NCBI GenBank assembly: GCA_035402645.1
Contig: DAONDQ010000001.1
Coordinates: forward strand, 15,680 to 79,679
Reading direction: 5' to 3'
DNA: 64,000 nucleotides
Source: Candidatus Cloacimonadota bacterium
GTDB lineage: Bacteria; Cloacimonadota; Cloacimonadia; Cloacimonadales; DAONDQ01
The translations under genes and the position numbers were made by a program. Positions 17,837 through 56,961 of the stretch are shown piece by piece. The notes below the pieces were generated by a model. That model was not told the origin of the DNA. It ran no database searches and saw only the letters and a list, made by a program, of their open reading frames with translations. Each line of letters begins with the position of its first letter. Position 1 is the first letter of the stretch.

Positions 17837-20800
17837 TCACATGTTCATTATCTGATTGATGTATGTTTTTTCATCCATAAACACGACATTATTGGATATA
17901 TATTCCCCTGGTTCATATCCTCGCAATTGAAGTTCCATCTTGCCTGTCCATGATACAATCCAACTATTCAAAACAATGTCTTTATCACCAAGCCTTCTTT
18001 CAATCTCCTTGATCCGCTTATGAAATTGAATCTTCTCTGAATTGACACCTTCGTGCATTAATCCATGTGGTTCTATAAAATGAATGTATTGCTTTGTGCC
18101 ATGTAATATCCAAAGAATGAAATCAGGATGGAAATTCCCTGCTTCGAAGAATCCGACCCCTTTCCCTCGGCTCAGGTTGCGAAGCAAGAAGAGCTCCATG
18201 CTTTGGGTTTGCATTATGCGCTTATTCTCTTCGCACCAGCTTTTCAAATCCAAGACAAACTGGTACTCACTCTGGTTCAACGATACTGGTAAAACGGTAA
18301 TTCTCCCTGAATTTCTTGTATGAAGTAAAGGTTTGAAAAGATGCTTTCCAAAATTGCACACATCAAGTTCGCCGACCCTGATAACATCTTTGTTATCGCT
18401 AATATCATTTTGCAGATTTTTGATTGCTTCAATAACATTCGATGCATCTCCATCTACTATGACCTGGTATTCAGCAACATTCGGCAAATTATCATCTTCC
18501 GATGTCAATTCCCGGATTTCAAGACGAGGTTCAAGAAATTCCCTATTTCTATATTTCTGAAGTTTATCCATATAACGCTTTAATAATTCGGTCGCAACTT
18601 TCTGCAGAGTAAAGATTTCTTCATAGCTCTCGGGATGTAGGATGTAATCAGGGAGATATAATTCGTACCACGAAGCATTATGCAGCAAATCAATCAGACA
18701 CTGACTGGTGATGCTCAGATTATACCATTTCTTTTCACATCTAAATCTTTCCAGATCAAAGTACAAGTCATTATAATTCAACAGGCTCAGTTGTTCATCC
18801 TGCAAAATCACTGCCTGCTTTTGATCTTGTTGGGTACGTTTCTGTGAAGCAATTGTCTGAATGCGTGGAAACCAATTTGATACGATCTTATTCTTTTGGA
18901 GATACTCAGGTACTGAATCCAAGAGAACAGTGGGACCGTCATTCATAAAATCATATTCTTTCCCATTGATCTTCTTGGGACGTATGATCTTCAGCTTCTT
19001 CCCGAAATCATAGGTCACATTAATGGGTATGGGTATGGATTCCATCCTTTCATTACCCGGCAAACCTTCTGATGCCAGGTACTTTCTAAATTTCTCCATG
19101 AAATCTGATTCTATTCCGAATACATTCAAAGTTTCAATTTCTTCTATAAACCGCGGTTTTGTCGTGGCTTTTGTATGACCACTACGTTTCAAGCTCCACT
19201 CGAACCCTTTTAACCGTACCCCGCGTCCAAATAGTTGAATAATTTGTGTCCCTTCCGTTTTCCCCACATGCATCAGACCCATGGTGCTCACTCTCCAACA
19301 ATCCCAACCTTCTATGAATTTTTTCGAACCGATCAGCAAGTTCACTGAGGAACTTGAATCTTTGACGGTAGCGAACATGCTTTCTGTAAAATCACTATCT
19401 TTGATTAAAATTGGCATATTATCGCGTTTGGCGACAAAATCTATATGCTCGCATAGTCCTTTCGAATCACCAACATTGATCAAACCAAAGGAAGAATCTG
19501 AATTCCCCGCATATAATGCAATTTCTCCTGATTCACCTTTGATTCGTGTGAGGGATAAATGACCACCACCGCTGTTGTTGAACAAATGAAGAAGTATATG
19601 TGCATAAATAGCAGCAGGATCCGATTGGGCTATGTAATATATCTTCAAGTATTGAAAGGAACTATGGAAAATATCATTCCCTGAGCCATCCAGTAAGCCG
19701 GTATCCGCCCCTGTACCATTCATCAGCTGGTTGATATATCTCTGAAACACCTGTGGTCTGGAAAGAAAATCGGCTATGAACTTTATGACCTTACCCACAT
19801 CCGTAATCAGGTCTGCAGTGGGTACCAGAATTTGCTGATTGCCCTTTTTTTTGGTTACGGTACTTCCTACAAATACCCATAAGGGCTTTTCCAGATTAAA
19901 TAATTCCAGTTCCTTTCTTTTATCTTTGAACAGTAATAGCTGCTGATAGAACTTCAACAGACAGGCTGTTAAATATATATCCTGAACCTCCTCCAATGAC
20001 CTGGGAAGATTCAGTATCTGATAATCCTTGCCAAAACCGTCTTCATAGAACCACCTATAGGAATAATCAAAAAGAATTGCTTTGGCGTAACTTTCTGCCA
20101 GTACCTGGCTACTGGAAGCTGCCACTGCCTGTTCAAACGTTGCTGAATACTCGAAAGTAAAACCTCTCCCACATAATTGGGCACGTCTGGTAAAAAAAGC
20201 ACCCTCTTCTGTCCCGCTCATTCCCCGGTGTCCTTCGTCCACAAGCAGAAGGTTCTGGTCACCCAAGTCACGGGTGGCTTTTGTATTGGGACCGCTTTTA
20301 TCTCCAAGTTTAGTGATTTCCAGCACGTCAATTTGTTCAAGACTGCCCTCCTGTCCGGATTTCAATCTCTGTGCCAAGCCAAATCCACTTTGATTCAACT
20401 CCTCCAAATGCTGTTCTGTTAATCCCTCATTGGGGGTTATGAGAATCACATGGGAAATATCCCTCCCCAATTTTGTCTTTTTTGCATAGTGCCTGAATTG
20501 CAGCAAGTTCACATGCATGATCAGTGTTTTACCGCTTCCTGTGGCATTCTGCATGCATATCTTGTTGAGATCATCATCCGTATATGGATTTACATTTTCA
20601 TATCCAACCCAATGTTCGTTGAATTGCATAATGAAGGAATTGAGATCATTCAGCAGACCTTCACGATTCGTGAAGTACCTATCCAGGTATATTTCCACAA
20701 AGAGCAACGACAACCATTGAAAATACTTCCAGACTATGGGTCTATTTCGTCGCCTATTGATGAACAATGTATGACGCGCAATGTTCTCTTCATACGAGAG

Positions 20801-21061
20801 CAATTGTTCTCTCGTTAGACTTGAACTGTTATTGTAGAATAATTCACTATTCACCAGTGCATGATAGAATCTATGCAACCCGTCAGTGTCCAGACCTTCC
20901 GGATCAACACTTCGTATCGGTGCGGACAACCGATGAAATGGCAATTCGTTGTGATTTGCTTCCGATAGGGGATTGACTCCAAAAAGGTTGATAAGCCACT
21001 GGTTTAATACCAGTTTTTTACGAAATTCAAGTGGATTGTTCCTATTTCTTCTTGCTAACAT
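17837..21061 (-). CDS. res: Type III restriction enzyme Res subunit (SF2 helicase/nuclease)
   Basis: Helicase motif I QNATGSGKTLIMH and motif II LLLVDEGHRG. The C-terminal HPDFILWI...HFIEPHG resembles a PD-(D/E)xK-type nuclease core. Same operon as a DPPY methyltransferase. Confidence 0.8.
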   Translation of the reverse strand: MLARRNRNNPLEFRKKLVLNQWLINLFGVNPLSEANHNELPFHRLSAPIRSVDPEGLDTDGLHRFYHALVNSELFYNNSSSLTREQLLSYEENIARHTLFINRRRNRPIVWKYFQWLSLLFVEIYLDRYFTNREGLLNDLNSFIMQFNEHWVGYENVNPYTDDDLNKICMQNATGSGKTLIMHVNLLQFRHYAKKTKLGRDISHVILITPNEGLTEQHLEELNQSGFGLAQRLKSGQEGSLEQIDVLEITKLGDKSGPNTKATRDLGDQNLLLVDEGHRGMSGTEEGAFFTRRAQLCGRGFTFEYSATFEQAVAASSSQVLAESYAKAILFDYSYRWFYEDGFGKDYQILNLPRSLEEVQDIYLTACLLKFYQQLLLFKDKRKELELFNLEKPLWVFVGSTVTKKKGNQQILVPTADLITDVGKVIKFIADFLSRPQVFQRYINQLMNGTGADTGLLDGSGNDIFHSSFQYLKIYYIAQSDPAAIYAHILLHLFNNSGGGHLSLTRIKGESGEIALYAGNSDSSFGLINVGDSKGLCEHIDFVAKRDNMPILIKDSDFTESMFATVKDSSSSVNLLIGSKKFIEGWDCWRVSTMGLMHVGKTEGTQIIQLFGRGVRLKGFEWSLKRSGHTKATTKPRFIEEIETLNVFGIESDFMEKFRKYLASEGLPGNERMESIPIPINVTYDFGKKLKIIRPKKINGKEYDFMNDGPTVLLDSVPEYLQKNKIVSNWFPRIQTIASQKRTQQDQKQAVILQDEQLSLLNYNDLYFDLERFRCEKKWYNLSITSQCLIDLLHNASWYELYLPDYILHPESYEEIFTLQKVATELLKRYMDKLQKYRNREFLEPRLEIRELTSEDDNLPNVAEYQVIVDGDASNVIEAIKNLQNDISDNKDVIRVGELDVCNFGKHLFKPLLHTRNSGRITVLPVSLNQSEYQFVLDLKSWCEENKRIMQTQSMELFLLRNLSRGKGVGFFEAGNFHPDFILWILHGTKQYIHFIEPHGLMHEGVNSEKIQFHKRIKEIERRLGDKDIVLNSWIVSWTGKMELQLRGYEPGEYISNNVVFMDEKTYINQIMNM

Positions 21062-22094
21062 GAGGCTTACCGCTTTTCTTCTCGATTTGTTTCACTTCAG
21101 TTATTGCTTCCACAAAATGCTTTTCCGCTATACTGGGTTGCTTTAATTGCTCTGTATGCCACTTTTCATATTCTTTGCGAGCCTTTTCGATTGCCTTATC
21201 GTGGGCAACTTTTCCTGCGTGTGTAAGTATCTCTCTTCCGCTTAGTTTCAGAAATTCATCGAGTTTGGCAATCCAATCCCTCATATACATGGGAGTTCTA
21301 TTCAAAGCCTGTAATTCTGCAAAATCAAGATACATGGTGACTATGCGATTCAGAATATCCAACTCATTTTCATTTAGATAGTTTTTTGCCACAACGGTAT
21401 CTGTTTGTCTTGGTTCGTCTCCGATCCAATTGGTGAGTCCCATATTTAGTTTCCCGGCTTGTGCGCGTTCGTAGATGATTTCTGCAGCCGTATGCCCATG
21501 ACTTGCCCAGTGCATTTTATTCTGGATGACTTTGAAGAAGGCTTGGGAAGATTCTGCTCTCGGATCATAATCGATACTGGTGGCATATATATCCAATACC
21601 TTCCGCCAAAACAGCTTTTCCGAAGAACGGATATCCCGTATCCGCACCAGTAATTCATCGAAATAACTACCGCCTCCGTTTTTCTTCAGCCTCTCATCAT
21701 CCAGCGTAAAACCCTTGATAATATACTCGCGCAATCTCTGCGTAGCCCATTGACGGAAGTGGGTGGCAATGGTGGATTTAATTCTATAGCCAACACTGAT
21801 AATCATATCCAGACTGTAATGTGTGACCTGTCTTTGAACTTCTCTATCACCCTCATTTTGAACTATTAAGAAATCCTTAATAGTTCGATTCGAGTCCAGT
21901 TCACCTTCTGCAAAGATGTTCTTCACATGGATATTGATGTTGGCTACTGTGGTTTGAAATAGCTCTGCCAATTGTTTTTGAGTCAACCATAAGGTTTCAT
22001 TTTCCAACCTTGTTTCCAACCTCAGCTTGCCATCTGTACCGGAATAGAGAAGAATTTCACTCTTTGGAAGTTCTTTTGCTTTTTTGATCATCAT
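21042..22094 (-). CDS. rhuM: RhuM-family protein (copy 1)
   Basis: Motifs SVGYRIKS..ATHFRQWATQRLREYIIKGFTLDDERLK, FDELLVRIRDIRSSEKLFWRKV, LNRIVTMYLDFAE and PMYMRDW. The ATG at 22094 overlaps the mod stop (ATGA). Confidence 0.8.
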   Translation of the reverse strand: MMIKKAKELPKSEILLYSGTDGKLRLETRLENETLWLTQKQLAELFQTTVANINIHVKNIFAEGELDSNRTIKDFLIVQNEGDREVQRQVTHYSLDMIISVGYRIKSTIATHFRQWATQRLREYIIKGFTLDDERLKKNGGGSYFDELLVRIRDIRSSEKLFWRKVLDIYATSIDYDPRAESSQAFFKVIQNKMHWASHGHTAAEIIYERAQAGKLNMGLTNWIGDEPRQTDTVVAKNYLNENELDILNRIVTMYLDFAELQALNRTPMYMRDWIAKLDEFLKLSGREILTHAGKVAHDKAIEKARKEYEKWHTEQLKQPSIAEKHFVEAITEVKQIEKKSGKPHVSKKK

Positions 22095-24394
22095 ACATCC
22101 TCCGTTTCCCACATACTTTGGAAGAATTTTCCCTCGATGTCATATACTTCCCAATGATCTTCCTTCCTTTTCATAAGCTGCAGATTACTGCTGCCATTCA
22201 CATAAATAATGTTGTACTCTTTTCCCTTATCCTGCCTACATGTCAGTTCAAACCACGTGTTCAATACAAGGTTATCCTCTTCCAGATTATCTGTACGATT
22301 ACGCCATATCACCAATACCCTATCTTTCAAACCATCATTCGGTGCATACGGATTACGGGGTACCCAACCCTCCACTTTGCGGAACCACCATTTTCCATCC
22401 ATACGTGCTTCCAGACCACTTGCCAAAACCAATTTGGTGTTCCGGTCTCCCGGCAATTCCGGGTCAACCATGCGTGTAAAGGATGCCTGGTATCGTTGCG
22501 TTTGTGCAACATGTTCCACACGCAATCCTATCAGGTAATTGAAGGTTTCAAGCAAATCCACGTTTTTAATGATATACTCGTCACTTCCGGGTTTCTTCAC
22601 CTCGAGCTGATACTTGTCCGGCTCATCAAAAGCATCCACATTCAACAGACTACTGCTTCCCCGGGTTTCCACATCGAGCATGTAATGAAGCATGTGATCC
22701 TCTTTCAATCGGGGATTATTGGATATTGCCTTATCCTGTATGGTATCCTCGGAAAAGACCAGATTATTCAGTGTATCCTCGTAACTCTCCAGTCGCAGAT
22801 ACTTGATACATTGGCTGATGCCCGTATGCCTGTTTACAGGCTTTCCATCCTTCCAATCCCTGCTATAAACCACCTTCTCCATTCTTGGCTTCAAGACCGT
22901 ATCAAAGTAATTACCCATCTCCACTAAAACATACTTCCGGTCTCCACCATCTTCACGATTTAGATTAAGAACTGCATGACCTGTTGTACCGGAACCTGCA
23001 AAATAGTCGACCCAATTCCCAGTTTTTATCCGTACAGAAGCAAATAACTGTAATAATAATTTTGAAGGTTTAGGATAGGATACAGCATACTGTTCTCCTA
23101 ATAATTGATGTAATTCATCATTTGCATCTTCGTTTGTGCCCCATCCGAATTTACCTAGATCATTTACATCATATTGCGAATAGTTTGCTTCTCCTGTATT
23201 CCCTAATCTCAAAAGGGTATCTCTCATCCTTTTTTCACGAGGTTCAGTAACGATTCTCCTTAAATATAAATCCTGAGTAATATATAGAGTTTTATCAGCA
23301 GCATAATTCATCATAGTATCTTGTGAATAACGCCAGTTACCCTCAATAATGAGTTCTTTTGCAAGAACTCCTTTTTCGATTACTAAATCAGATAAAAGTG
23401 TTAAATACATATTTCCTGCACTTATTTTCGAGCCCTCTTTTAAATAGTAATCTTTATCTTTATACTTGCTAACAATACCAGGTGGAATTATTCGTTTATC
23501 CCTCTGATTCGATGGATTTACACACGGGTAAGTCTCTTCTTCTGATGTTATTTCCCCGACTAGTCCACCAAACTTTGTTATGTCTTTTGCAATACATATG
23601 ATATAGTCTTTCATTTTTGCTATGTAACCACTTAGAAAAGTCCCTTTTTTCTTTTTTTCCCAAATCAAAGTTGAAAAAAAAGCAGTTTTCCCATATCTCT
23701 CAGTTATTAATGTAGATAAATGTTCTTGTTCTTCATCTCCAATGCTAATAAAAAAAACACCTTCTGATGATAAGGTCTTTAATCCTAATTCTACACGGTC
23801 ACCAATCATTGTAAGCCATGTTGAGGATGGATATGAATCTTTATATATAAATCCATCATCTCCAGTATTATAAGGAGGATCAATGTATATACACTTCACT
23901 TGCTCTTTATACTTTGCCTGTATAAGGTTCAGCGCTTGATAATTCTCGCTATGGATGAGCAGTCCATCGCAATGTTCGTCAAAATCACGGATGGAATCAA
24001 TCAGTTTGGCTTTAAAGGCATCATCAAAGAACTTCGTATCCAGTACCAGCTTGTCGTTGGCTTTTAGAAAATCCACCGTCAGTGGATTGTTGTAGGAATG
24101 AGTCACAAGGTCTCCCTTGATCTCATCCACGGCAAAGAGTTTTATCCATTCCTCATGCTGTGCATGATTGGCAATTATCTCCGGATATAACTCTTGAGGT
24201 ATCCTGTCCAGTGTGATGCAGTAATTAGTTTCCACCACAAATTTCTTTTTCAGCCACAGCTTCTTCTGGAAGTCTTCCAATTGAGCCAGGAATTCAATGA
24301 GTTTCCCTGCTATCCTGCGTAACACCCTGACCTTATTAAGATAAGTCTCCACAGCCGGGGCTTCGGCATTTTCTAAGTCATCCAGACGCATCAC
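22091..24394 (-). CDS. mod: Type III-like DNA methyltransferase Mod, C-terminal (catalytic) fragment of a frameshifted gene
   Basis: Motif IV IYIDPPYNTG and motif I DYFAGSGTTGHAV (beta-class N6A/N4C MTase). This frame is open upstream to 24427 and reads FYIKNEVMRLDD, continuing the upstream ORF if one T is removed. Confidence 0.8.
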   Translation of the reverse strand: MMRLDDLENAEAPAVETYLNKVRVLRRIAGKLIEFLAQLEDFQKKLWLKKKFVVETNYCITLDRIPQELYPEIIANHAQHEEWIKLFAVDEIKGDLVTHSYNNPLTVDFLKANDKLVLDTKFFDDAFKAKLIDSIRDFDEHCDGLLIHSENYQALNLIQAKYKEQVKCIYIDPPYNTGDDGFIYKDSYPSSTWLTMIGDRVELGLKTLSSEGVFFISIGDEEQEHLSTLITERYGKTAFFSTLIWEKKKKGTFLSGYIAKMKDYIICIAKDITKFGGLVGEITSEEETYPCVNPSNQRDKRIIPPGIVSKYKDKDYYLKEGSKISAGNMYLTLLSDLVIEKGVLAKELIIEGNWRYSQDTMMNYAADKTLYITQDLYLRRIVTEPREKRMRDTLLRLGNTGEANYSQYDVNDLGKFGWGTNEDANDELHQLLGEQYAVSYPKPSKLLLQLFASVRIKTGNWVDYFAGSGTTGHAVLNLNREDGGDRKYVLVEMGNYFDTVLKPRMEKVVYSRDWKDGKPVNRHTGISQCIKYLRLESYEDTLNNLVFSEDTIQDKAISNNPRLKEDHMLHYMLDVETRGSSSLLNVDAFDEPDKYQLEVKKPGSDEYIIKNVDLLETFNYLIGLRVEHVAQTQRYQASFTRMVDPELPGDRNTKLVLASGLEARMDGKWWFRKVEGWVPRNPYAPNDGLKDRVLVIWRNRTDNLEEDNLVLNTWFELTCRQDKGKEYNIIYVNGSSNLQLMKRKEDHWEVYDIEGKFFQSMWETEDV

Positions 24395-25454
24395 TTCGTT
24401 CTTTATGTAAAAAATCCAATTCCCGCTTCAGAAAATTGCCCAAATCCTTGTGTATAAAATAGTCCATCGTATTGCGGGCTGTGTAATGATTCAAATATTT
24501 TGCCAGCAGAATACGATTTTTGTCATTTTCCGTCGGTGTTTTTGCTGTAAGCAATTGTAGATAACCTGAAGTCTGTTCCTCCTTTTTCAAAGCCTGTAGT
24601 ATCACCTGCACAGCTTCCTGGTTCTTCACATCCCGCCAGGAATTTTCCTGTTTGTTTTTTTCTTCATCGGAGCGATACTCGAAATTGATGACCAATTCTC
24701 TCTTGTCATTCCATTCAATAGGCTTCTCCCCGTGAATGATAAAGAAGCGCTTTTTGGCATCGGATTCCTTGATATTGCCATGTTCACCTTCCATGGCATC
24801 GACGATTTTGAAATGAACCATCAATTTTTCAGGTAAGTCTTCTTCCAGGTTAAACTCTTCCTGCCCCATGTCTTTACCCGATTTTTCTATAATCTTTTTA
24901 TTAGCCTGCACAAGGTCAAAACTGAAATTATTAAAGTACTCAGTAGTTTTGATATAATACTGGTCGGCATTCGCCCAATGCAGTTTGATTTCCTCCCCGT
25001 TATACGGTACGGCATAAGAGGCTGCTTTGTCTGCTGTTTCCCTGGTAATATACCTGCGGGATATGAAATCACCATCCTCATAATAGCGTTCAAAGAAACG
25101 ATACAAATGGTCATATATTTCACTCTCCGCAGATGCTGAATTTCCTGCAGCCTCATAGTTGGCTCTTGCTTCCTGTACCTTGGGAGATTTCTCAGGTTCT
25201 TCCACACCATAAGCCCTGGCATTTTCCAATTCCTGGTCAAGAACAGCTTTCAATCGTACTTTACGGTTCTCATCTTCCCTGCCGAATGTTTCCTGTATGA
25301 TCCCGAGTAGGTCATTTTCGATAAAATCACTGACTTGATTCGCTTTGGCATGCATGATACGATAGAATCCAAAATCCAAATCCGGTTGATTCAGTTGGAA
25401 TAGTTCCCTTAATTTGTTAACCAGTTTCATCCTTAATTGTGCATTTGTTGGCAT
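24378..25454 (-). CDS. mod: Mod N-terminal fragment (frameshifted)
   Basis: Start taken at MPTNAQLRMKLVNKLRELFQLNQPDLDFGFYRIM (GGGAG SD upstream of 25454). Terminates 17 nt inside the next ORF. Together the two pieces would give ~1150 aa. Confidence 0.7.
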   Translation of the reverse strand: MPTNAQLRMKLVNKLRELFQLNQPDLDFGFYRIMHAKANQVSDFIENDLLGIIQETFGREDENRKVRLKAVLDQELENARAYGVEEPEKSPKVQEARANYEAAGNSASAESEIYDHLYRFFERYYEDGDFISRRYITRETADKAASYAVPYNGEEIKLHWANADQYYIKTTEYFNNFSFDLVQANKKIIEKSGKDMGQEEFNLEEDLPEKLMVHFKIVDAMEGEHGNIKESDAKKRFFIIHGEKPIEWNDKRELVINFEYRSDEEKNKQENSWRDVKNQEAVQVILQALKKEEQTSGYLQLLTAKTPTENDKNRILLAKYLNHYTARNTMDYFIHKDLGNFLKRELDFLHKERSDASG

Positions 25455-25603
25455 GAATTCTCCCTGTAAATGTTCTAATACCTGTATAAATTGAATATTC
25501 TGGAATGAATTCCCCATGTCAAATAAAAAACAAATTCCTGTCAGCATTCGTTTAACAGGAATTTGAGATATTCTATAGATAATTACCAGTATGCTATTCT
25601 ATA

Positions 25604-27453: not shown

Positions 27454-29283
27454 TTAGAAATTGGATGGTGGTTTTTTGAATTTCCAGCTTTCTGATTCGA
27501 ATGGGGTTAATCCTGCATGTGCATGAACTTCAGGGAAATTTGGCGGTTGTGTATATGAAAAGCGATTATCGAAATGATAGTCCTTCTTATATCCTACACC
27601 AACACCACTTGCACCTGTACAATTAATACCAGTGCTCGTGTCACCCCATTTATAGTTTACAAAATCCCATGTGCCATTATGGTTGGCTGTATCGGTTGTA
27701 CTTCTATGCACAAAACCTCTGCGTCTCTGCGCTACTGAACCATAAAGATGAATGGTTCCCCTTTCAAGATATGGCTGTCTTTCAGGCCAAAGAGGATTAT
27801 ACCACGGATAGTCCAGAATACCGGGCCACATCATGGTATCAGTTTGGGGATACAGGTGGGTATGCAGATCCACCTTTGTATACATAGAATTCCCAATTCT
27901 TGTATCAGGTGTTGAAGGATGGGGTCCTTGATATTCAAATGTAAATACACCGTCTTTATGTGGATTGCCATCTCCATTTCCCAATGCGCATAAGGCTGCA
28001 TATATCCAAATGCCCTGGGCGTCGGAACCACAAGTATCGTGGTGTCTGGTTCCTGAATACATTGGGTCTGCAATTCCATATTTGATCAGAATTCGTTTTT
28101 CGGAAACCAACCCAACAATATCATATGGGTTCGAATTAGCCGGAATACCATTACCATCCGGATTCTGACCTAATGCGGTTCCCTGAAGTTTAATATTGCC
28201 TACCAGGTACAGAGTATCTTTGCATCCCCAAGTCTGTTTCCCGCTGAAGATACCGTCAATCCATGTTTTCACCGGGATGTAAATCGATGAGTTATTGACT
28301 GAAATGGAAGGTCCGGGAGTCCAGACTGTGTCCAATTTCGTTAAGTAATACCAGTATAGTTCTGGTCCCGTGGGAGGTGGGTAGGCAGCATAGCAATCGA
28401 TGGATTCTCTTTGCGCATTGACCGTAACATGACCAATCCATGATTGCCCACTTGAACCATTGACGTGTACGCGAAGAAGAGTATTATTATCATGGTCAAT
28501 TTGCAGGTTATTTCCTGCCTGGATTGCCAGTGCCTGGTCAGGAAACTCGATTTTCGGTACGTGTTCATAGTAATGATCGAGAAATACACTTTCATAAGGT
28601 ATCGTTCCGTTATTCGATTGGAATATCCCTGCGGTTGAAACATTGGCATAGAATGTTGGCCATCCACCATTATTCGTACTTCCACCCTGCTCAATCCAAA
28701 TATTTGAATTACTGTGCACTTTCCCGTAAATCACATCGGGTCCCCAGAAATAAACTCTCCCTGCAACTTCACCCATATCGGCATTTTCTGAGGCTTCAGT
28801 ATCGGTGAAATAATGATATCCGGCAAACGTGGAACGATGAATGTCTTTTTCCGCATACTGCTTCACCGGTGATATGTTGTTTGACCAAAGAATACCATTA
28901 CCGCCTCCTCTTTTTGCCGTTATGAGGCTTTTCACAACATACCCGTTTGTCGAATAATATCCGCCACCTGTTGTTACATTTGATTTAGCGATCTTGGTTT
29001 TAAGAAAATACGTTGTTCTGGTATTTGTCCCAAGCAGTTCGAATTGCTGAATCGGCAGGGTAAAGCCTTCCCCTGAATAATCAGTTGTCTTGCAGGCAAG
29101 CAATCCACGAAACGCCTGGTACCTGAGAAAATGAGTTTCCTGTAGGGAATCATTCTGTGTTCGTTTGGATACAACATCTTTTAAGGCAACCGCTGTCATA
29201 CTGATGCTTGAAAGAAAGGTGATGATCACAACAGCCATAGCCAATGATAGATTCCCACGTTGTGACATAATTAATCTACTCAT
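27454..29283 (-). CDS. large PilX-N-terminal-like pilus-associated protein, paralogue A
   Basis: N-terminus MSQRGNLSLAMAVVIITFLSSISMTAVAL (hydrophobic helix, no G|FTLIE prepilin site). Co-linear similarity to ORFs 29478-31304 and 42652-44487, including VIYGKVHSNS.IW, AALCALG.GDG.PHKDG and the terminal GYKKDYHFDNRFS.TQPPNFPE...KFKKPP.NF. Confidence 0.6.
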   Translation of the reverse strand: MSRLIMSQRGNLSLAMAVVIITFLSSISMTAVALKDVVSKRTQNDSLQETHFLRYQAFRGLLACKTTDYSGEGFTLPIQQFELLGTNTRTTYFLKTKIAKSNVTTGGGYYSTNGYVVKSLITAKRGGGNGILWSNNISPVKQYAEKDIHRSTFAGYHYFTDTEASENADMGEVAGRVYFWGPDVIYGKVHSNSNIWIEQGGSTNNGGWPTFYANVSTAGIFQSNNGTIPYESVFLDHYYEHVPKIEFPDQALAIQAGNNLQIDHDNNTLLRVHVNGSSGQSWIGHVTVNAQRESIDCYAAYPPPTGPELYWYYLTKLDTVWTPGPSISVNNSSIYIPVKTWIDGIFSGKQTWGCKDTLYLVGNIKLQGTALGQNPDGNGIPANSNPYDIVGLVSEKRILIKYGIADPMYSGTRHHDTCGSDAQGIWIYAALCALGNGDGNPHKDGVFTFEYQGPHPSTPDTRIGNSMYTKVDLHTHLYPQTDTMMWPGILDYPWYNPLWPERQPYLERGTIHLYGSVAQRRRGFVHRSTTDTANHNGTWDFVNYKWGDTSTGINCTGASGVGVGYKKDYHFDNRFSYTQPPNFPEVHAHAGLTPFESESWKFKKPPSNF

Positions 29284-29477: not shown

Positions 29478-31304
29478 TCAGAAATTCGCTGGTGGTTTCT
29501 TGAATCTCCAACTTTCTGATTCGAAAGGTGTCAAACCAGCCCTTACATGGATCTCAGGAAAATTAGGGGGTTGTGTGAACGAGAAACGGTTATCGAAATG
29601 ATAATCCTTCTTGTAACCAACACCTGTACCCGACGCTCCGGGATAGTTCATTCCATCACTGGTGGAACCCCATTTATGCTGATCCAAATTCCAGGTGCCA
29701 TCGTGATGTCCGTAATCATATAAGGGACGATGGACTACACCTCGTCTTCTTTGTGCAATCGACCCATAGAGGTGTATCGATCCTCGTTCGAGATAGGGAT
29801 CCGCTTCTGGCCATAAGGGATTATACCAGGGGAAATCAATCGTTCCGGGCCAGGGATATGCATTCGTGGGTGGAAATCTCCTTTTATGGAGGTCAATTTT
29901 CGTATAGTTGATGTCGTTTAATCTGATATCAGGTGTTGAATAATGTGGTGCTTGGTATTCAAAACTGAAGATACCATCCTTGTGCGGATCCCCGTTTCCA
30001 TCCCCTAATGCACAGAGGGCAGCATATATCCAGACTCCCCCTGTATCGGGACCACTGGTGGGATGCCTTCTTCCATCGTATAAAGGATCATTGAGCCCAT
30101 ATTTTAAATAAATCCTCTGCTCGGAGATGAGACCCACAAAATCGTAGGGATTCCCAAAAGAGGCATTTCCGTTTCCATCAGGACTTGTTCCCAGGGGAGT
30201 ACCTGATAGTTCGATGTTACCAACCAAAAAAAGTGTATCTCTGCAGCCCCAGGTCTGTCTTCCCGAGAAAGTGCCATCAATCCATAATTTGCATTCACAA
30301 TATATGGAATTATTGCTCACAGAAAGCATTGGTCCCGGAGTCCATACAGTATCATTTGGGGAGAGGTAATACCAATACAATTCAGGACCGGTTGGTGGTG
30401 GATATTGGGCATAACAGTCAATCGATTCTCGCTGTGTTGCCGGAACAATCTGTCCAATCCATGATTGTGCCTGGTTACCTGAAATATGGACTCGAAGAAT
30501 TGTATTTACATCATAGGGAAGTCCAACATGAGGACCTGCCTGAACAGCATTGGCAACGCTGGGAAATTCAAGTTCTGCCACATGTTCGTAATAATGATTA
30601 TGAAAGACTGTCTGATACGGAATGGTTCCACTCACGCAACGAATGATCCCGCAAGTGGAAACGGGGGCATAAAACAAAGGCCAACCTCCGTTGATACCAC
30701 CACCCTGGTTGGCAATCCAAATATCCGAATTGCTGTGCACCTTGCCATAGATGACATCATTCCCTGCAAATACGATCCTGCCGTCATCACCGGGCATTCC
30801 AACATCCTCCGATACTTCTGTATTCGTGAAATAATGATAACCGGCAAAAGTGGAGCGCCGAACATCTTTTTCAGCATATTTTCTGACGGTGGAGTAATTT
30901 TGAGACCAGAATATCCCATTCCCGCCGCCTCTCTTTGCTGTAACGAGGCTTTTGACGGTATAACCGTTGGTCATATAATACCCGCCACCGGTGGTTACAT
31001 TCGATTGTTCCACCTTTGTCTTCATGAAATAGGTGGTCCTGGAATCTGATCCCAACATCTCGAATTGCTGTAGGGGCAATGTGAAGCCTGCTTCGGAATA
31101 GTCGGTGATTTGACATGCCATAGTACCGCGGGATGCTTCATAACGGAGCAGATGGGTTTCCTGGAGACCATCCTGTTGGATTCGACAAGCAAGAACATCC
31201 TTGAGGGCAACTTCTGTTAGAGTAATGCTGGATAGGAATGCGATAATGAGAACAGCCATGGCAACTGCAATATTCCCTCTTTCATCCATCTTCAAAATGC
31301 TCAT
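29478..31304 (-). CDS. large PilX-N-terminal-like pilus-associated protein, paralogue B
   Basis: Same architecture and motifs as paralogue A. Separate gene with a 194-nt spacer containing a hairpin (29369-29390). Confidence 0.6.
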   Translation of the reverse strand: MSILKMDERGNIAVAMAVLIIAFLSSITLTEVALKDVLACRIQQDGLQETHLLRYEASRGTMACQITDYSEAGFTLPLQQFEMLGSDSRTTYFMKTKVEQSNVTTGGGYYMTNGYTVKSLVTAKRGGGNGIFWSQNYSTVRKYAEKDVRRSTFAGYHYFTNTEVSEDVGMPGDDGRIVFAGNDVIYGKVHSNSDIWIANQGGGINGGWPLFYAPVSTCGIIRCVSGTIPYQTVFHNHYYEHVAELEFPSVANAVQAGPHVGLPYDVNTILRVHISGNQAQSWIGQIVPATQRESIDCYAQYPPPTGPELYWYYLSPNDTVWTPGPMLSVSNNSIYCECKLWIDGTFSGRQTWGCRDTLFLVGNIELSGTPLGTSPDGNGNASFGNPYDFVGLISEQRIYLKYGLNDPLYDGRRHPTSGPDTGGVWIYAALCALGDGNGDPHKDGIFSFEYQAPHYSTPDIRLNDINYTKIDLHKRRFPPTNAYPWPGTIDFPWYNPLWPEADPYLERGSIHLYGSIAQRRRGVVHRPLYDYGHHDGTWNLDQHKWGSTSDGMNYPGASGTGVGYKKDYHFDNRFSFTQPPNFPEIHVRAGLTPFESESWRFKKPPANF

Positions 31305-49561: not shown

Positions 49562-50269
49562 TTAAATGACAGAAAATTCAAGCCTGGCTTTTCTCTGCTG
49601 CCAATCGGGCATTACCCTTGATAACTTACGATAAAATCCGGTATTATGCTTCGGGTGGAAGATATGGCATAACTCGTGTACAATGATATAATCGATACAA
49701 ACCATCGGTGTCTTGATCAATTCAGTATTGAATAAAATCCTATTCCCCGTGCAGCTGCCCCATCGCTTTTGCATTTTTCGAAAAGTCAGAACCGGTTCCT
49801 CTTCCAAGGTATTTTCAAACTGCTGATAATACACCCGGAACCTTTCGGAAATTCTTCTGACAGCTTGTTTCCGATACCAGCCGTGCATGAGTTTGCGGAC
49901 CCTTTCCTTATTATTTATATCTGTTAGTTCTACGATAAACCACTTCCCGAGTAATCGAACCCTATTATGGGTGGATTCCACCTTTTTCAATCTATATTGC
50001 CTTCCCAAATAATAGAACGTTTCCCCGCTTTCATACCGGTGTTCAACAGGTAATGGGAAGAACTGCTCGAAGTAATGTCTTTTCTTGCGGATAAGGAGTG
50101 CCTTCTTATCAAGGACACTCGTGATATTTTCCCAGGTAATGGATACATTTCCCCTGAACTCGATTGATAGATCAGGCTTAATGAAGATGCTGCTTGTTTT
50201 CCTTGAACTCAGGACCACATTGATCTCAATCACTTGGTCATCGAGTACCCATTCACGTTTATAATTCAT
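49562..50269 (-). CDS. DUF45/YgjP-like zinc metallopeptidase
   Basis: HELCHIFHPKH (HExxH) near the C-terminus. 4-nt overlap with the hsdR stop. Confidence 0.75.
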   Translation of the reverse strand: MNYKREWVLDDQVIEINVVLSSRKTSSIFIKPDLSIEFRGNVSITWENITSVLDKKALLIRKKRHYFEQFFPLPVEHRYESGETFYYLGRQYRLKKVESTHNRVRLLGKWFIVELTDINNKERVRKLMHGWYRKQAVRRISERFRVYYQQFENTLEEEPVLTFRKMQKRWGSCTGNRILFNTELIKTPMVCIDYIIVHELCHIFHPKHNTGFYRKLSRVMPDWQQRKARLEFSVI

Positions 50270-53200
50270 GGTCTTCTATGCTGCGCTATACTGATGCATT
50301 GATCAAGGATTTCATCGATCTTATCGAAATCAGGTTTCACCTCGTATTCCTGCATCTCCTCATAGATACGGTCTTCCATATCGATCTTCATTTTGTTCTG
50401 AACATCGATATTGTTCGCCCAGTCCACAATTCTATCTTTTTCTATGATCTTATCAATTTCCAAAGCCATCTTTGCCAAGACATCATTCTTATTCGGCAAA
50501 TCTATGGAACTCAAAGATTTATTGATCGCTCCAAAATATGCCTTCGCCACATCATTTTCCGCAAGAACAGAAGGTGTATCATCTCCTGTCCTGCTTATGA
50601 TATTCTTCATGATATCCGATACTTTCTTAAGATAATCGAGAGCATTGATTCGCCCTTCCCTGAAAGCCTTAATCGTATCATCGAGAAGCTCAGAGAACTT
50701 CCTGTAAAAAATCGGATCATTATCCATTCGGGTCTGAATTTCCAACTTTGTCCTATGTGCGATGGTATCAGCCTTTGCAGTATCGGAGTGTAACTGCTCC
50801 ACTTCATCCTTGAAGGCATCGTCGAAGATATTGACCAAATTCGTTATAGGTACGGCAGGATTGGCTTTCACGTATGTATTCAGGAGATCCTGGATTTTCT
50901 TCTCATAATCACTGAACTTGATTTTCTCTGCATATCTCTGTGCTACGGACGATTTCAGTTTCTGGAAAAACTGATTGTCATTCTGGTATTGCATCACCTT
51001 TTGATTGTCCGTTGTCAGGTAGAAATCCTCGCTGGACGTAGCAATCATCAAAGCCCTGCTGTAAGCGGAAAGTCTTTCATAGAATTGCTCCCGAAGTGCC
51101 TTATCACCCAATAGCAGTTCAAATTCCTCTTCATCTGCAGGATTATTTATGGTTTTGAATGTATCCCAGAGAATGGTATGTTTTTCAGGAAGCTTTGCCG
51201 TCTCCACTTTGATATCACTCAATAAGCAGGCAATGTCTGCCTCATCGAATTCCGGTAACTTCGAATATAGGTCAAGAGCGTTATTCAACCCTTCCAGAAT
51301 ACCATAATAGTCTATAATAAAGCCAAAATCCTTTTCATCATACAGACGATTCACACGCGCAATAGCTTGCAGCAAGGTATGATCCTTCAGGTTTCTCGTC
51401 AGGTATAGTACCGTATTCAGTGGCGCATCAAAACCTGTCAGCAGTTTATCCACGACAATGATGATCTCAGGTGTATCGGAATACTTGAAGGCATTGATGA
51501 TTTGTTTGTTATATTGCTTTTCATCTCCAAAGCGCTTCATCATATGTTGCCAGAAGGGAATTATTTCATTTGCATTGGGACTCTCGATATCTGTTTCACC
51601 TTCTCTGTCATCCGGTCCTGATATAAGAACTTCTGTGCTCACTTTACCGAATTCATCCAGAAACTTCTTATACTTGAGTGCAGTTGGTCTATCATTTGCA
51701 ACCAACTGCCCCTTGAAACCGGAGTTCTGAAAATAGGTTGAGTAATGAATCCCAATATCCCATGCAATGGCTTTGACTGTTTCATCGGTTTTCTGGATTT
51801 GATCGGTGGTGGAATACTTCCTTTTCAAATCGGCTTTCTGTTCTTTGGTCAGATTAGCCGTTACTGCTTCAAACCATCTGTCTATGCCTTCCTTTTGAAC
51901 TTCCTGGATAACATGCCTACCCTCATAAAGCAGGGGTACTACCGCTTTGTCTTTCACAGCTTCCTGCATGGTATAGGTATTGATGAGTCCCCCGAATTTC
52001 ATCAGCGTGTTCTTCTCACCCTTCATGATGGGTGTGCCTGTAAAACCTATATAACAGGCATTGGGGAGAACTCTTTTCAGTTTGGCATGCAATCTTCCAA
52101 ATTGGGCACGGTGACTCTCATCCACCAATACAAATATATCAGGCGATGAGTTGATCACATCCTGTGCATTCAGGGCTACATCGAATTTATTGATGATAGC
52201 AGTAATGATGGTTGCCTTGTTCTGCTCGATCAGCCTTGCCAGGTGCGCTCCTGAACGGGCTTGCTCCGGCTCCTTCCCGCAGGCTCTGAAAGTATCATAT
52301 ATCTGGTCATCCAAATCCACTCTATCCGTCACCAGCACGATCCTGTAATTGGGAATATCGGGCGACAGCACCAGGCATTTTGCCAGCATGACCATGGTAA
52401 GTGATTTACCGCTGCCTTGCGTATGCCAGACCACTCCGCCTTTTCTCTTTTTATTGTCACCTGACAGGCGAATACGTTCCAAGATCGTTTGCACACAAAA
52501 ATACTGCTGATACCTGGCGATCTTCTTTTCACCCCCATCATAGAGAATGAACTTGTATGTCAGCTCCAGCAGTCTTTCAGGACGGCACAGGGAATAAAGC
52601 ATCCTGTCCTGTTCCGTAACCAGGTTCTCAGAGCATGACTCGATGACATTCCGGATATGGGCGTCATTGCCATAAGCAGCAATGATCCTGGTGGTTTCAC
52701 TTTCCAGCAGCACTTTTTGTTTGACTGCCTGTGCTTCGGTATCCACTTCCTCACGCCAGATTGCCCAGAACTTCGCTGAAGTTCCACACGTTGCATACAT
52801 CGCTTCATTCTTGGATAGTACCATCAGCATCTGGCTGTAATGAAACAACCTGGGTATCTCATCGTTCTTCTGGTTTCGTATCTGCTGACTTATCGCCTGA
52901 TCCATGGGATCTTTGATGGATGGACTCTTGCATTCTATCACCACCAGGGGGATACCGTTTACAAACAGGACAATATCCGGTCTCCTGGTTTCATAACTAC
53001 CTGTCCTTTCCACGGCAAATTCTTCCGTAACCTGGTAGATATTGTTCTTCGGCTGCTTCCAATCGATGTAATTCATCCAGAAGCTTTTCAGGTCTCCTTC
53101 CACGATCTGGGGCAGGCTTTTCCCAAGTGAAAGCAAATCGAATATCCTCTCGTTCGTTCGAATCAAACCCTCATAGGATATCTCCTTGAGCGTTTCCACT

Positions 53201-53430
53201 GCGGAAATGATATTGCTTTCTGAAAAAGGCTGTTCCTTTCCCCTGTATTCAATCCTGTTATGCTCCCGCAACCACGGAATCAACACATCTTCCAGTAATA
53301 CGGCTGACTGCTTGCTCCCCCTCAATTTGTTGACTTCCACCGGACTGAGATATTCCCAACCCAATTTCTGCAAATACAACAATGCCGGAATCTTCGACAA
53401 ACAGTCTTCATCAAACCTTAGATACGCCAT
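50266..53430 (-). CDS. hsdR: Type I restriction endonuclease subunit R
   Basis: HTQGSGKSLTMV (motif I) and FVLVDESHRAQ (DEAH-type motif II). N-terminal nuclease region and ~1050 aa. Confidence 0.9.
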   Translation of the reverse strand: MAYLRFDEDCLSKIPALLYLQKLGWEYLSPVEVNKLRGSKQSAVLLEDVLIPWLREHNRIEYRGKEQPFSESNIISAVETLKEISYEGLIRTNERIFDLLSLGKSLPQIVEGDLKSFWMNYIDWKQPKNNIYQVTEEFAVERTGSYETRRPDIVLFVNGIPLVVIECKSPSIKDPMDQAISQQIRNQKNDEIPRLFHYSQMLMVLSKNEAMYATCGTSAKFWAIWREEVDTEAQAVKQKVLLESETTRIIAAYGNDAHIRNVIESCSENLVTEQDRMLYSLCRPERLLELTYKFILYDGGEKKIARYQQYFCVQTILERIRLSGDNKKRKGGVVWHTQGSGKSLTMVMLAKCLVLSPDIPNYRIVLVTDRVDLDDQIYDTFRACGKEPEQARSGAHLARLIEQNKATIITAIINKFDVALNAQDVINSSPDIFVLVDESHRAQFGRLHAKLKRVLPNACYIGFTGTPIMKGEKNTLMKFGGLINTYTMQEAVKDKAVVPLLYEGRHVIQEVQKEGIDRWFEAVTANLTKEQKADLKRKYSTTDQIQKTDETVKAIAWDIGIHYSTYFQNSGFKGQLVANDRPTALKYKKFLDEFGKVSTEVLISGPDDREGETDIESPNANEIIPFWQHMMKRFGDEKQYNKQIINAFKYSDTPEIIIVVDKLLTGFDAPLNTVLYLTRNLKDHTLLQAIARVNRLYDEKDFGFIIDYYGILEGLNNALDLYSKLPEFDEADIACLLSDIKVETAKLPEKHTILWDTFKTINNPADEEEFELLLGDKALREQFYERLSAYSRALMIATSSEDFYLTTDNQKVMQYQNDNQFFQKLKSSVAQRYAEKIKFSDYEKKIQDLLNTYVKANPAVPITNLVNIFDDAFKDEVEQLHSDTAKADTIAHRTKLEIQTRMDNDPIFYRKFSELLDDTIKAFREGRINALDYLKKVSDIMKNIISRTGDDTPSVLAENDVAKAYFGAINKSLSSIDLPNKNDVLAKMALEIDKIIEKDRIVDWANNIDVQNKMKIDMEDRIYEEMQEYEVKPDFDKIDEILDQCISIAQHRRP

Positions 53431-53473
53431 GCTGCTCCTTCATTCCCGATCTGAGATCGGGAACAAATTCCTT

Positions 53474-53710
53474 TTACTTCTTATCCTTCGGTGGACATGG
53501 ATCATTCCCATGACTGTCCGGGTTTTGTATCTTTCCGTCTTTGCCATGTATAACGAGTTCAGTACCCTGGTTTATGCTGATTTGCCTTCCGGCTTTCTCA
53601 GCTTCTGCCTTTGTATCAAAATGTCCACTGGCACGTTCCGCATTGTTACGTTTTACGTCCCAGCCACCATTCCGGTTAGGTACAACATGATGTTGATTGT
53701 TAGCCATCAT
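53474..53710 (-). CDS. DUF2188-like small protein
   Basis: GGWDVKR...FDTKAEAEKAGRQIS...ELVIHGKDGKIQ...HGNDPCPPKD matches my recollection of the DUF2188 pattern. A GGAGG SD overlaps the end of the upstream gene. Confidence 0.65.
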   Translation of the reverse strand: MMANNQHHVVPNRNGGWDVKRNNAERASGHFDTKAEAEKAGRQISINQGTELVIHGKDGKIQNPDSHGNDPCPPKDKK

Positions 53711-53716
53711 ATCCTC

Positions 53717-54208
53717 CTATTTGATTTTAACAATAACAGCTATAACGATTATGAGAACAAAGACTGCCATAAAAACAAATGGAATTATTTGCTCCAATTT
53801 CGTTACAGGTATATAAGTTCTATTATTTTCTCCTGCATCCAAAGCTTCCCATTCTGCCGTAAACAACTTAAGAGGTAAATAGTGTTCAATTTCATGAATC
53901 ACTTTGAAATGACCCGATGATATTTGCTTATAGGAGTTCAATATGGCTTTCCACAGAAAGCAGTTTACAATCCCTACAAGAGAAAGCCCTGCAATTATCC
54001 AGGAAGAGATGCACTTTTCAATCATGATCCCAATCAGTGCAATAAAGCCTGTGTTCAAAGTAATGAACCAATTAACTAATTGTTGTCTTCTCTGGTGCAT
54101 CCTATCTGTCATTTCAACAAACAACTTATACTGATCATAAAGATCTTTATGATAAAGTTCTTTATCATAATAATCTTTTTCAGCTTTACCCATTAGTTTC
54201 TTTAACAT
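53717..54208 (-). CDS. small 3-TM membrane protein (SLATT-like candidate effector)
   Basis: ~40-aa charged N-terminal helix (YDQYKLFVEMTDRMHQRRQQ). TM hairpin WFITLNTGFIALIGIMI / WIIAGLSLVGIVNCFLW. C-terminal TM segment IIPFVFMAVFVLIIVIAVIV. 10-nt gap after the TIR-like gene. Confidence 0.6.
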   Translation of the reverse strand: MLKKLMGKAEKDYYDKELYHKDLYDQYKLFVEMTDRMHQRRQQLVNWFITLNTGFIALIGIMIEKCISSWIIAGLSLVGIVNCFLWKAILNSYKQISSGHFKVIHEIEHYLPLKLFTAEWEALDAGENNRTYIPVTKLEQIIPFVFMAVFVLIIVIAVIVKIK

Positions 54209-54218
54209 TGATTTACCC

Positions 54219-54605
54219 TTATGTTAGTTCTCTAATTGCTTGAACAATAGATTCTGTGTTCCAGTTGACTGTTTTATCAGCATATTTCGTTAATGAACTT
54301 GATAATTGATTACCCCATGGTTTAATTGCTAGTATTGGTTTTCCATTCGCTATAGCGATGTTGATTTCTTTTATTATTGAATTACTATAGGATGCATATA
54401 CGCCAGCAATCAGTATCACAATATTAGACCATTTGATACTGTTTTCGATTTCTTCCCATACCTTTTTGTTGTTGCCTGAAACAGGATTATCTTCTGGTAT
54501 AGAATAATTCCTAAAATCAAAGTAATTTCTCTCTTCTAGTAAACCGACAAGATCCTCATAGTGTTTGCTATAGTCCCAACTATGGCTAATAAAGATGTTT
54601 GGCAT
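54219..54605 (-). CDS. TIR-like domain protein (DUF1863 / ThsB-like)
   Basis: IFISHSWDY start, then SNIVILIAGVYASYSNSIIKEINIA and GKPILAIKPW, which is the layout of MTH538-type TIR-like domains. 128 aa. GGAGGAAAA SD. Confidence 0.65.
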   Translation of the reverse strand: MPNIFISHSWDYSKHYEDLVGLLEERNYFDFRNYSIPEDNPVSGNNKKVWEEIENSIKWSNIVILIAGVYASYSNSIIKEINIAIANGKPILAIKPWGNQLSSSLTKYADKTVNWNTESIVQAIRELT

Positions 54606-54615
54606 TTTTCCTCCG

Positions 54616-55905: not shown

Positions 55906-55920
55906 CAGCTCTCCGGTCCT

Positions 55921-56961
55921 CTATTTCCTCTTCAGGCTTCTTTTCAGTTTTGTAGTATGCTGTGTCAGTTCATCGAGTTGTTTCACGTCATCATGGGTCT
56001 TATCTTCCAGTTGGATACGTTTTCCCCTGAATTTTTCATATTCTTTATGCGCCAATGCCTGTGCCACTTCATGTGACACTTTCCCTGAATTCTTCAGAAT
56101 TTCCCTGCCGTTGAATCGCAGGAAGGCATCCAGTTTTTCCTTCCAGTCCCTCATATACATAGGCAATTGTCGTTCTGCCTGGTCTTCCGCATAGTCTAAA
56201 TACATGGTGACGATTCGATTCAGTTCTTTCAATTCCTGTTCGTTCAGGTAATTCTTGGCAACCTCCACATCCGTTTTCCTGACTTTTTTCCCTTTCCATG
56301 ATGTTAAGCCCATATTGGGTTTCTCAGCATTGGCTCTATCTGAAATCAATTCTGCCGCAGTTTTGCCATGCACGGCATAATGAAGCTTGTTCTGAACCGT
56401 GGCATAGAACTCCACCGTGATGGGAGCATTGGGATCATAATCCACAGCAAGGCTGTAAAGTTCTGTAATCTTCCTATAGAACATTTTCTCGGAAGAACGG
56501 ATATCCCGAATACGTTCCAGCAGTTCATCGAAATAGTCCCTTCCGAAGGCTTTTGCTTCCTTGAGCCTGTAATCATCAAGGACAAATCCCTTCTGCAGCA
56601 ACTCTTTCAGCTTTTCGGTAGCCCATCTGCGGAATTGCATACCCCGATGAGATTTTACCCGATAACCTACTGCGAGAATTGCTTCCAGGCTATAATAAGC
56701 TAACGGTCTATTTATCTTACGGTTACCTTCCTGTTGAACTGTCAAGAATTCCTTGACAGTTGCCCCATAATCCAATTCCCCATCGTTATAACTATTTAAT
56801 AAATGGCGACTTACATTCTGTTTCGTTGTTTGATACAATTCAGCAATTGCCAACTGACTCAGCCACACGTTCTCATTTTCGAATTTCACATCGATCCGGG
56901 TTGAACCATCTTCGGTCTGGTAGAGCAGGAAATTGGAGCTTATCAAATCCGTTTTTTTCAT
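55921..56961 (-). CDS. rhuM: RhuM-family protein (copy 2)
   Basis: Same motif set as copy 1 (AVGYRVKSHRGMQFRRWATEKLKELLQKGFVLDDYRLK, IRDIRSSEKMFYRKI, LNRIVTMYLDYAE, PMYMRDW). ATGA overlap with the hsdM stop. Confidence 0.8.
   Translation of the reverse strand: MKKTDLISSNFLLYQTEDGSTRIDVKFENENVWLSQLAIAELYQTTKQNVSRHLLNSYNDGELDYGATVKEFLTVQQEGNRKINRPLAYYSLEAILAVGYRVKSHRGMQFRRWATEKLKELLQKGFVLDDYRLKEAKAFGRDYFDELLERIRDIRSSEKMFYRKITELYSLAVDYDPNAPITVEFYATVQNKLHYAVHGKTAAELISDRANAEKPNMGLTSWKGKKVRKTDVEVAKNYLNEQELKELNRIVTMYLDYAEDQAERQLPMYMRDWKEKLDAFLRFNGREILKNSGKVSHEVAQALAHKEYEKFRGKRIQLEDKTHDDVKQLDELTQHTTKLKRSLKRK

Follow-up and report, generated by a model that had tools for sequence, protein, structure and literature searches.

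A Type III-like mod gene split by one additional T in a clonal Cloacimonadota strain: a probable recent loss of function

The locus described here raises the question of why a large DNA methyltransferase gene (mod) of a restriction-modification (R-M) system is found in two reading frames close to an intact restriction gene (res), and whether this reflects an assembly error, a reversible switch, a functional division of the protein or a gene that is being lost. It lies in a stretch of 64,000 nucleotides (nt) of contig DAONDQ010000001.1 from a Candidatus Cloacimonadota bacterium (assembly GCA_035402645.1), referred to here as the window. An earlier interpretation made from the letters alone (the sequence-only reading) had proposed a single large mod gene split by a one-base homopolymer expansion, with res intact, and the reading frames, the profile matches and the homologues all agree with this proposal. 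The best explanation, to which we assign a probability of about 0.74, is a recent, fixed loss-of-function +1 slippage frameshift from five to six T (T5 to T6 on the coding strand) in the Type III-like mod gene of a clonal Cloacimonadota strain. The coordinates of the features are collected in Table 1.

On the coding (minus) strand, the junction between the two frames reads GAAGCGGGAATTGGATTTTTTACATAAAGAACGAAGTGATGCG, or CTGAAGCGGGAATTGGATTTTTTACATAAAGAACGAAGTGATGCGTCTGGATGAC in a longer stretch. The N-terminal open reading frame (ORF), which extends over 24378..25547, ends with KRELDFLHKERSDASG / NFLKRELDFLHKERSDASG and is closed by the stop codon TGA at 24380..24378; the out-of-frame tail of this fragment is DFLHKERSDASG. 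The downstream frame lies one base ahead; it is open from 24427, reads SGNWIFYIKNEVMRLDDLEN and runs for 767 codons to 22091. Deletion of one T results in an uninterrupted open frame, in which the junction is restored to FLKRELDFYIKNEVMRLDD and the peptide across it is RELDFYIKNEVM. On re-reading the window sequence, all coordinates and peptides of the sequence-only reading proved to be correct. It had also expected a joined protein of ~1150 amino acids (aa), of which the single product stands, but its size has to be corrected to 1120 aa, counted from the real start; the first ATG would give 1151 aa. The true start is the ATG at 25454..25452, as homologues begin at the equivalent methionine with MP(S/T)xEQLR (MPTNAQLRMKL in the window), and nothing in homologues corresponds to the 31 codons upstream of it, which reach back to 25547.

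Judged by their sequences, the two ORFs together make up one Type III-like Mod protein, of which they encode the N-terminal and the C-terminal part. Both match the PADLOC MTase_III profile PDLC03646 (1057 positions) colinearly, the N-terminal ORF at positions 6-333 (E 1.8e-62) and the C-terminal ORF at positions 336-961 (E 8e-124), and they are therefore regarded as one gene and not as a chance juxtaposition. In Pfam, no match was obtained for the N-terminal ORF, and the C-terminal ORF matches PF01555, N6_N4_Mtase (E 6e-24). The motif IYIDPPYNT is located ~300 residues ahead of DYFAGSGTTGH with the target-recognition region in between, which is the order of the beta class. A fold search with Foldseek was carried out with an AlphaFold2 model of moderate quality (predicted local distance difference test, pLDDT, 73.6; 64-sequence alignment) of the homologue P0001, which is 68% identical to the window protein, and gave as top matches 6k0w, the Mod subunit of EcoP15I (4zcf_A/B) and that of Mbo45V (7dsu), with E values from 1e-16 to 1e-12. 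In the NCBI annotation, the N-terminal fragment is labelled as a hypothetical protein (HNX00783.1, HPT70673.1) and the C-terminal frame as a site-specific DNA-methyltransferase of 766 aa starting at the ATG at 24391.

The relatives of this protein show how the gene is normally arranged. A protein search covered 5.8 billion (5.8e9) proteins and 8000 homologues were scored; the homologue figures refer to the best 120 of these 8000. They are single proteins of 1071-1220 aa with two exceptions, namely P0002, which is the window's own 766-aa C-terminal fragment and the only near-identical match, and P0037, a 927-aa partial sequence cut by the end of its contig. The full-length homologues span 97% of the repaired Mod, or 51-57% where the recognition domain differs, and the nearest of them has an identity of 68%. 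Across the junction, 12 out of 12 aligned full-length homologues run ELDFYIKNE(V/I)M, and the residues R-E-L-D-F-Y-I-K-N-E are invariant or nearly so in both alignments of full-length homologues (12 and 64 sequences), with the repaired window being identical. In a one-genome-per-species collection, 541 of the 599 stretches that were scanned contain confirmed relatives of the Mod/Res module, which come from many phyla, and a frame change in mod was found by tblastn in none of 80 genome loci, which are the best-scoring of the 541 and as such favour intact genes. The read-through of the junction in full-length homologues, put forward in the sequence-only reading, is verified by the 12 aligned homologues and by a single frame in all 80 loci, while its alternative of a genuine two-gene arrangement, in which orthologues would also be encoded as two ORFs, has no example among these 80 relatives.

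The codons at this site also indicate the origin of the additional T. In the 78 relatives in which the motif could be located, Asp-Phe-Tyr is mostly encoded by GAY TTC TAY, and 14 of them use GAT TTT TAY, which contains an in-frame T5. Since this run occurs at the exact spot, the window allele can be described as T5+1. The relative L020 has GAGCTGGATTTTTACATAAAGAACGAG compared to GAATTGGATTTTTTACATAAAGAACGAA in the window and is thus near the window sequence minus one T. Apart from one relative with an in-frame T6 encoding Phe-Phe, the relatives reach T5 at most. The tract would be a textbook case of a slippage insertion in a run that was made by ordinary codon choice and had not evolved as a repeat.

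Homopolymer indels are a known class of error, and it therefore has to be considered whether the true genome carries T5 and the sixth T was introduced by sequencing or assembly. One independent relative locus, L095, is broken up into numerous small ORFs in an error-like manner, probably as a result of long-read indels. However, T6 was found in the window and in eight further contigs, which were obtained by exact-protein look-up and each agree with the window at 100.000% identity along 1.3-14.3 kb: GCA_964460515.1 (NCBI); ERZ795026 (ENA); 3300009694, 3300025858 and 3300025867 (JGI); SRR4236661, SRR5007244 and SRR34774206 (Logan). At least four assembly pipelines or sources contributed these nine contigs, which do not differ elsewhere along as much as 14.3 kb, and several have SPAdes-style names, which suggests short-read assemblies. 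At NCBI, the two halves are stored as separate proteins in two Candidatus Cloacimonadota metagenome-assembled genomes (HNX00783/4 and HPT70672/3), and the protein clusters contain split forms only. The sequence-only reading had further suggested a check of other homopolymers for indels. A scan of all homopolymers of at least 5 nt in the window gave three other candidates for a two-frame junction (5143, 54622 and 56952), which were rejected as gene splits because they are the normal gene boundaries ExbD|TonB, HsdS|ThsB-TIR and HsdM|RhuM, so that no other homopolymer splits a gene in the 64 kb. As T6 is present in nine identical assemblies from different pipelines, an assembly error is effectively excluded, and we consider it extremely improbable.

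The absence of single nucleotide polymorphisms among the nine assemblies means that they are replicates of one clonal strain, for which T6 is the consensus state wherever it has been sequenced. An allele in frame was searched for in several ways. Among the 5.8e9 proteins, none with at least 90% identity across the junction carries the in-frame form, and a 170-aa peptide across the repaired junction, used as query, retrieved only fragments of at most 85% identity from other lineages and no ON allele. Scans with a gapped pattern, in which exact flanks enclose N{3,10} so that the tract may have any length, gave no match in the metagenome_contigs and genome_contigs collections, from which the strain is apparently absent; the pattern does match the window. 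One Logan contig (L008) ends 29 nt past the tract; this end was considered as the mark of a T5/T6 bubble and rejected, as the final k-mer of the contig is not the expected branch k-mer (k=31 assumed).

Type III mod genes are classic phase-variable methyltransferases, and in this case the T-tract would be a contingency repeat which the assemblies caught in the OFF phase and in which the loss of one T, at an appreciable rate, turns cells ON. The lesion sits in a homopolymer in which a single-base slippage would restore the frame, an intact res suits a reversible state, and 17.4% of the Type III mod genes in REBASE carry qualifying repeats (PMC5909438). However, in their study of 3805 Type III mod genes, Atack et al. 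set the limit for potential phase variation of mononucleotide tracts at a length of at least 9 nt, and the shortest tracts shown to vary, as cited there, have 7-8 nt and are largely poly-G (PMC5909438). T6 is below both values, in agreement with the remark in the sequence-only reading that six nucleotides are short for efficient slippage. Moreover, T6 occurs in nine of nine assemblies and no ON allele is present in public protein data, a comparison which was made on consensus contigs and has minority alleles or a low switching rate within samples outside its view. The tract is also not an evolved feature, as most relatives have TTC and reach at most T5, and a T6 is unremarkable in the window, whose plus strand contains 16 A6 and 28 T6 runs. 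Phase variation is thus judged to be quite unlikely. Of the options left by the sequence-only reading, a recent pseudogene or stable OFF state fits best; assembly error fails on the nine assemblies, and phase variation on the shortness and invariance of the tract.

Another explanation is that the split protein is functional. The 358-aa N-terminal fragment and the C-terminal fragment, the latter restarted by termination-reinitiation at GTG 24394 or ATG 24391, would both be made, and either their assembly or the C-terminal fragment alone would methylate DNA. The sole candidate restart for the C-terminal fragment, GTGATG, is found 15-20 nt past the tract with an overlap of 9-14 nt to the stop upstream, an arrangement compatible with translational coupling; the C-terminal fragment keeps the complete catalytic core, and neither half has a second lesion. 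On the other hand, none of the best 120 homologues or of the 80 genome loci is split or lacks the N-terminal region. The break does not fall into a linker but inside a predicted alpha-helix (residues 338-354 of the P0001 model, block pLDDT 80), with the junction F348|Y349 in one of the most conserved segments of the protein. In addition, the internal start lacks a Shine-Dalgarno (SD) motif, which is present in 16 of 32 window genes and at the true mod start. A functional split is therefore considered unlikely.

Alternatively, full-length Mod could be produced from T6 by recoding, either through a +1 ribosomal frameshift on UUU_UUA or through slippage of the RNA polymerase with the loss of one U. 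U UUU UUA permits a perfect re-pairing of tRNA-Phe in the +1 frame, and the T6 allele is stably maintained. However, the frameshift is conserved in 0 of 80 relatives, so that the conservation typical of prfB is lacking, and of the combination known from prfB (a slippery P-site, a slow or stop codon in the A-site and a stimulator) only the first is present, as UUU_U re-pairs. The 0-frame A-site codon UUA is common (15% of Leu codons, 13.7 per 1000), and no significant structure is predicted for the RNA beside the tract, whose folding does not surpass that of shuffled controls (z -0.05, -0.61, -1.36). For transcription, efficient slippage usually requires A/T runs of ~9 or more, and no terminator-like hairpin adjoins the tract on the coding strand. 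Recoding is very improbable on these grounds. It is unlikely that the T6 allele is still alive, with the globally sampled clonal strain keeping either a split Mod of an N-terminal accessory part and a restarted catalytic fragment or a low level of full-length protein from +1 slippage. If this were true, splitting or slippage would tune a Type III-like system in which the SNF2 partner kept by most relatives has been given up as well (see below), and the strain would be a natural experiment on the role of the 480-aa N-terminal extension of this large Mod family.

We therefore return to the loss of function by slippage, for which the following course is proposed. Replication slippage would have inserted a single T into the ancestral in-frame T5 (GAT-TTT-TAC, Asp-Phe-Tyr), so that the ribosome would leave the conserved frame after Phe-347 and stop 10 codons later. 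This would separate 347 native N-terminal residues from 773 residues with the methyltransferase core, and no full-length Mod would be formed. Type III systems cleave DNA through a Mod2Res complex in a reaction that requires ATP and unmethylated sites in inverse orientation, and their methylation is hemi-specific. Type III Res relies on Mod for the recognition of its DNA target, as in EcoP1I and EcoP15I. Because of this dependence, the whole R-M system is most likely silent, with both methylation and restriction off and without self-toxicity, as we infer by analogy. A silent and non-toxic system would explain why res and the RhuM-family gene between mod and res have remained intact, and the lack of a second lesion in mod or res suggests that the event is recent. 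Reversion by -1 slippage would be possible, although only at ordinary mutation rates, which argues for a pseudogene in the making and not for an evolved ON/OFF switch.

The rest of the locus is in a condition that can be compared with this proposal. Res aligns end to end with five homologues at 57-64% identity with all motifs present; it is recognised by PADLOC as REase_III only (E 8e-162) and additionally contains ResIII/DEAD motifs. Its C-terminus (17837..18100) contains a presumed nuclease motif, HPDF...(x19)...FIEPHG, with a His at the position where PD-(D/E)xK has Lys, in all six aligned sequences (the window and the five homologues). The loss of a catalytic Lys by decay was considered for FIEPHG and rejected, since the same His is found in all five homologues; being common to all six aligned family members, it is no sign of decay. 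In Mod, 122 of the 123 columns that are invariant in 64 homologues are kept. Of the 278 columns with at least 95% conservation, 10 are changed, compared to a median of 3 in the 64 intact homologues and 0-3 in the nearest relatives, and six of these ten changes are radical and located in the C-terminal part. The last ~230 aa (22091..22780) are 52-61% identical to peers, as opposed to 62-87% among the peers, and the N-terminal region is not so divergent. The changed conserved sites and the C-terminal divergence are a hint of relaxed constraint, and the divergence of the C-terminal region could be due either to relaxed constraint after the frameshift or to a recombined module.

Several points weigh against the proposed loss of function. 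The excess of changed conserved sites is within the range of 0-44 observed in intact homologues, and relative-rate tests gave a window-specific excess in the C-terminal region of Mod with some outgroups only, so that this result depends on the outgroup. Apart from the frameshift, neither half of mod is damaged, and a functional split or a bypass under continued selection would fit this as well. The choice of the 80 best-scoring loci mentioned above belongs here as well, and the nine clonal assemblies exclude an error but are silent on sister strains. Finally, the loss of Mod function itself is something we infer from the sequence.

If the loss of function applies, the two NCBI gene calls (hypothetical protein and 766-aa methyltransferase) should be annotated as one frameshifted mod pseudogene, and censuses of defence systems and interpretations of methylomes should count the Type III-like system of this strain as probably inactive. 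The locus would then also be a clean example of how an R-M system is safely switched off through Mod.

The surroundings of the locus are summarised in Table 1. Genes for thioredoxin, ArsP and ArsR abut mod in the window, and the base composition, at 0.34-0.44 along the locus and 0.416 in the window as a whole, does not clearly mark an island. The window contains a second R-M system, of Type I, and a RhuM gene is embedded in both R-M loci. Four independent assemblies (L002, L003, L005, L006) break near 27170, just downstream of two tandem ORFs, and this ORF pair may be repeated or strain-variable.

Table 1. Coordinates of the mod-res locus and of further features in the window (positions of the window; all on the minus strand).
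Feature	Coordinates	Strand	Remarks
mod, whole gene	22091..25454	-	Type III-like beta-class N6-adenine DNA methyltransferase; 1120 aa after deletion of one T
N-terminal mod fragment	24378..25454	-	358 aa including the 10-residue out-of-frame tail LHKERSDASG, plus stop codon
C-terminal mod frame	22091..24427	-	Motif IV (DPPY), target-recognition region, motif I (FAGSGTT), C-terminal region
Lesion, T6 on coding strand (A6 on plus strand)	24409..24414	-	Codons GAT TTT T|TAC; +1 frameshift
Candidate restart codons GTGATG	24389..24394	-	15-20 nt past the tract, 9-14 nt before the stop of the N-terminal fragment
SD-like AGGGAGA	25459..25465	-	4 nt upstream of the mod ATG 25454..25452
Sigma-70-like TTGACA-17-AATATT	25522..25494	-	Promoter-like, upstream of the mod start
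RhuM-family cargo gene	21042..22094	-	Between mod and res; intact; PF13310 (E 4e-112); PADLOC PDC-S05
res	17837..21061	-	1074 aa, intact; superfamily 2 (SF2) helicase motifs NATGSGKT, DEGH, QLFGRGVRLKG; C-terminal HPDF...FIEPHG
Tandem ORFs	27454..29283 and 29478..31304	-	609 and 608 aa, no Pfam match
Type I R-M locus	50266..58490	-	Second R-M system in the window
Candidate HsdR	50266..53430	-	1054-aa ORF, probably HsdR
ThsB-like TIR protein	54219..54605	-	
HsdS	54616..55905	-	
Second RhuM paralogue	55921..56961	-	Between hsdM and hsdS
HsdM	56958..58490	-	

The wider family to which the locus belongs is a more promising lead than the lesion. Res follows mod in all 43 loci with enough downstream flank, and the interval between the two genes is a hot-spot for cargo, as 25 of these 43 loci hold 0.7-4.6 kb there. 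RhuM is found in this interval in five genome loci (L018, L030, L063, L064, L067), and other cargo, in the homologue loci L012, L013 and L014, includes Fic, AAA_15 together with DUF4276 (similar to PADLOC HEC-01A) and PDC-M59A. Directly upstream of mod and in the same orientation, 48 of 63 loci carry a gene for an SNF2 helicase of ~960 aa, which in relatives scores 690-706 bits against the PADLOC DrmD model PDLC02619. No SNF2 gene was found anywhere in the window; this is not in itself evidence of decay, because 15 relatives with an unbroken Mod frame are also without SNF2. From its sequences, the module of SNF2, a Mod of ~1100 aa, cargo and a Res of ~1075 aa looks like a three-gene, Type III-like system with a flavour of DISARM (restriction-modification-associated defence island system), and a full-text literature search found no description of it.

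With the Type III R-M systems EcoP15I and EcoP1I, the family shares the order of mod followed by res, a co-oriented Res with SF2 motifs and a C-terminal nuclease-like motif, a Mod of the beta-class N6_N4_Mtase type with DPPY ahead of FxGxG, and the PADLOC pair MTase_III and REase_III. It differs in the size of the window Mod, which has 1120 aa in contrast to the 612-616-aa chain in the EcoP15I structure, in its conserved extensions, of ~480 aa at the N-terminus and ~250 aa at the C-terminus, in the nuclease motif, which in this family, known here from sequence, is PD...E-P-H rather than ExK, and in the cargo and upstream SNF2 genes described above. The locus is not a canonical two-gene Type III operon with a Mod of ~600-650 aa. 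The assignment to Type III in the sequence-only reading can accordingly be kept as Type III-like, but not as canonical, in view of the 1120-aa Mod, the RhuM gene between mod and res and the SNF2 gene in 48 of 63 relatives. Class 1 DISARM (DrmD-DrmMI-DrmA-DrmB-DrmC) is similar in the DrmD-like SNF2 gene beside mod in the relatives. In contrast to it, the gene tables of the examined loci (SNF2, Mod, cargo, Res) contain no DrmA (helicase), DrmB (DUF1998) or DrmC, the methylase is a Type III-like N6_N4_Mtase, and the window is without SNF2.

As for the lesion, the phasevarions of modA, modB, modD, modH, modM and modS resemble it in that the mod frame is broken at a simple repeat while res is kept, and in that the loss of Mod would safely silence both activities. 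Their repeats, however, are long and evolved (at least 9 mononucleotides or at least three units of 3-5 nt) and vary in length between isolates (PMC5909438), whereas the tract in the window is a T6 derived from ordinary codons and invariant in nine assemblies. In one relative (L096, 7001-13890), mod is interrupted by an insertion sequence (IS) with a DDE transposase and res is intact; this independent case fits Mod as the tolerated first hit, as far as the gene sequences indicate. Frame changes in res were observed in the loci of Halomonas sp. E19 (L036) and L089. The ordinary decay of R-M systems by frameshift or IS shares with the window that one subunit carries a single disabling lesion while the rest of the defence locus is intact, with nothing substantive that differs, and the lesion most likely belongs to this category.

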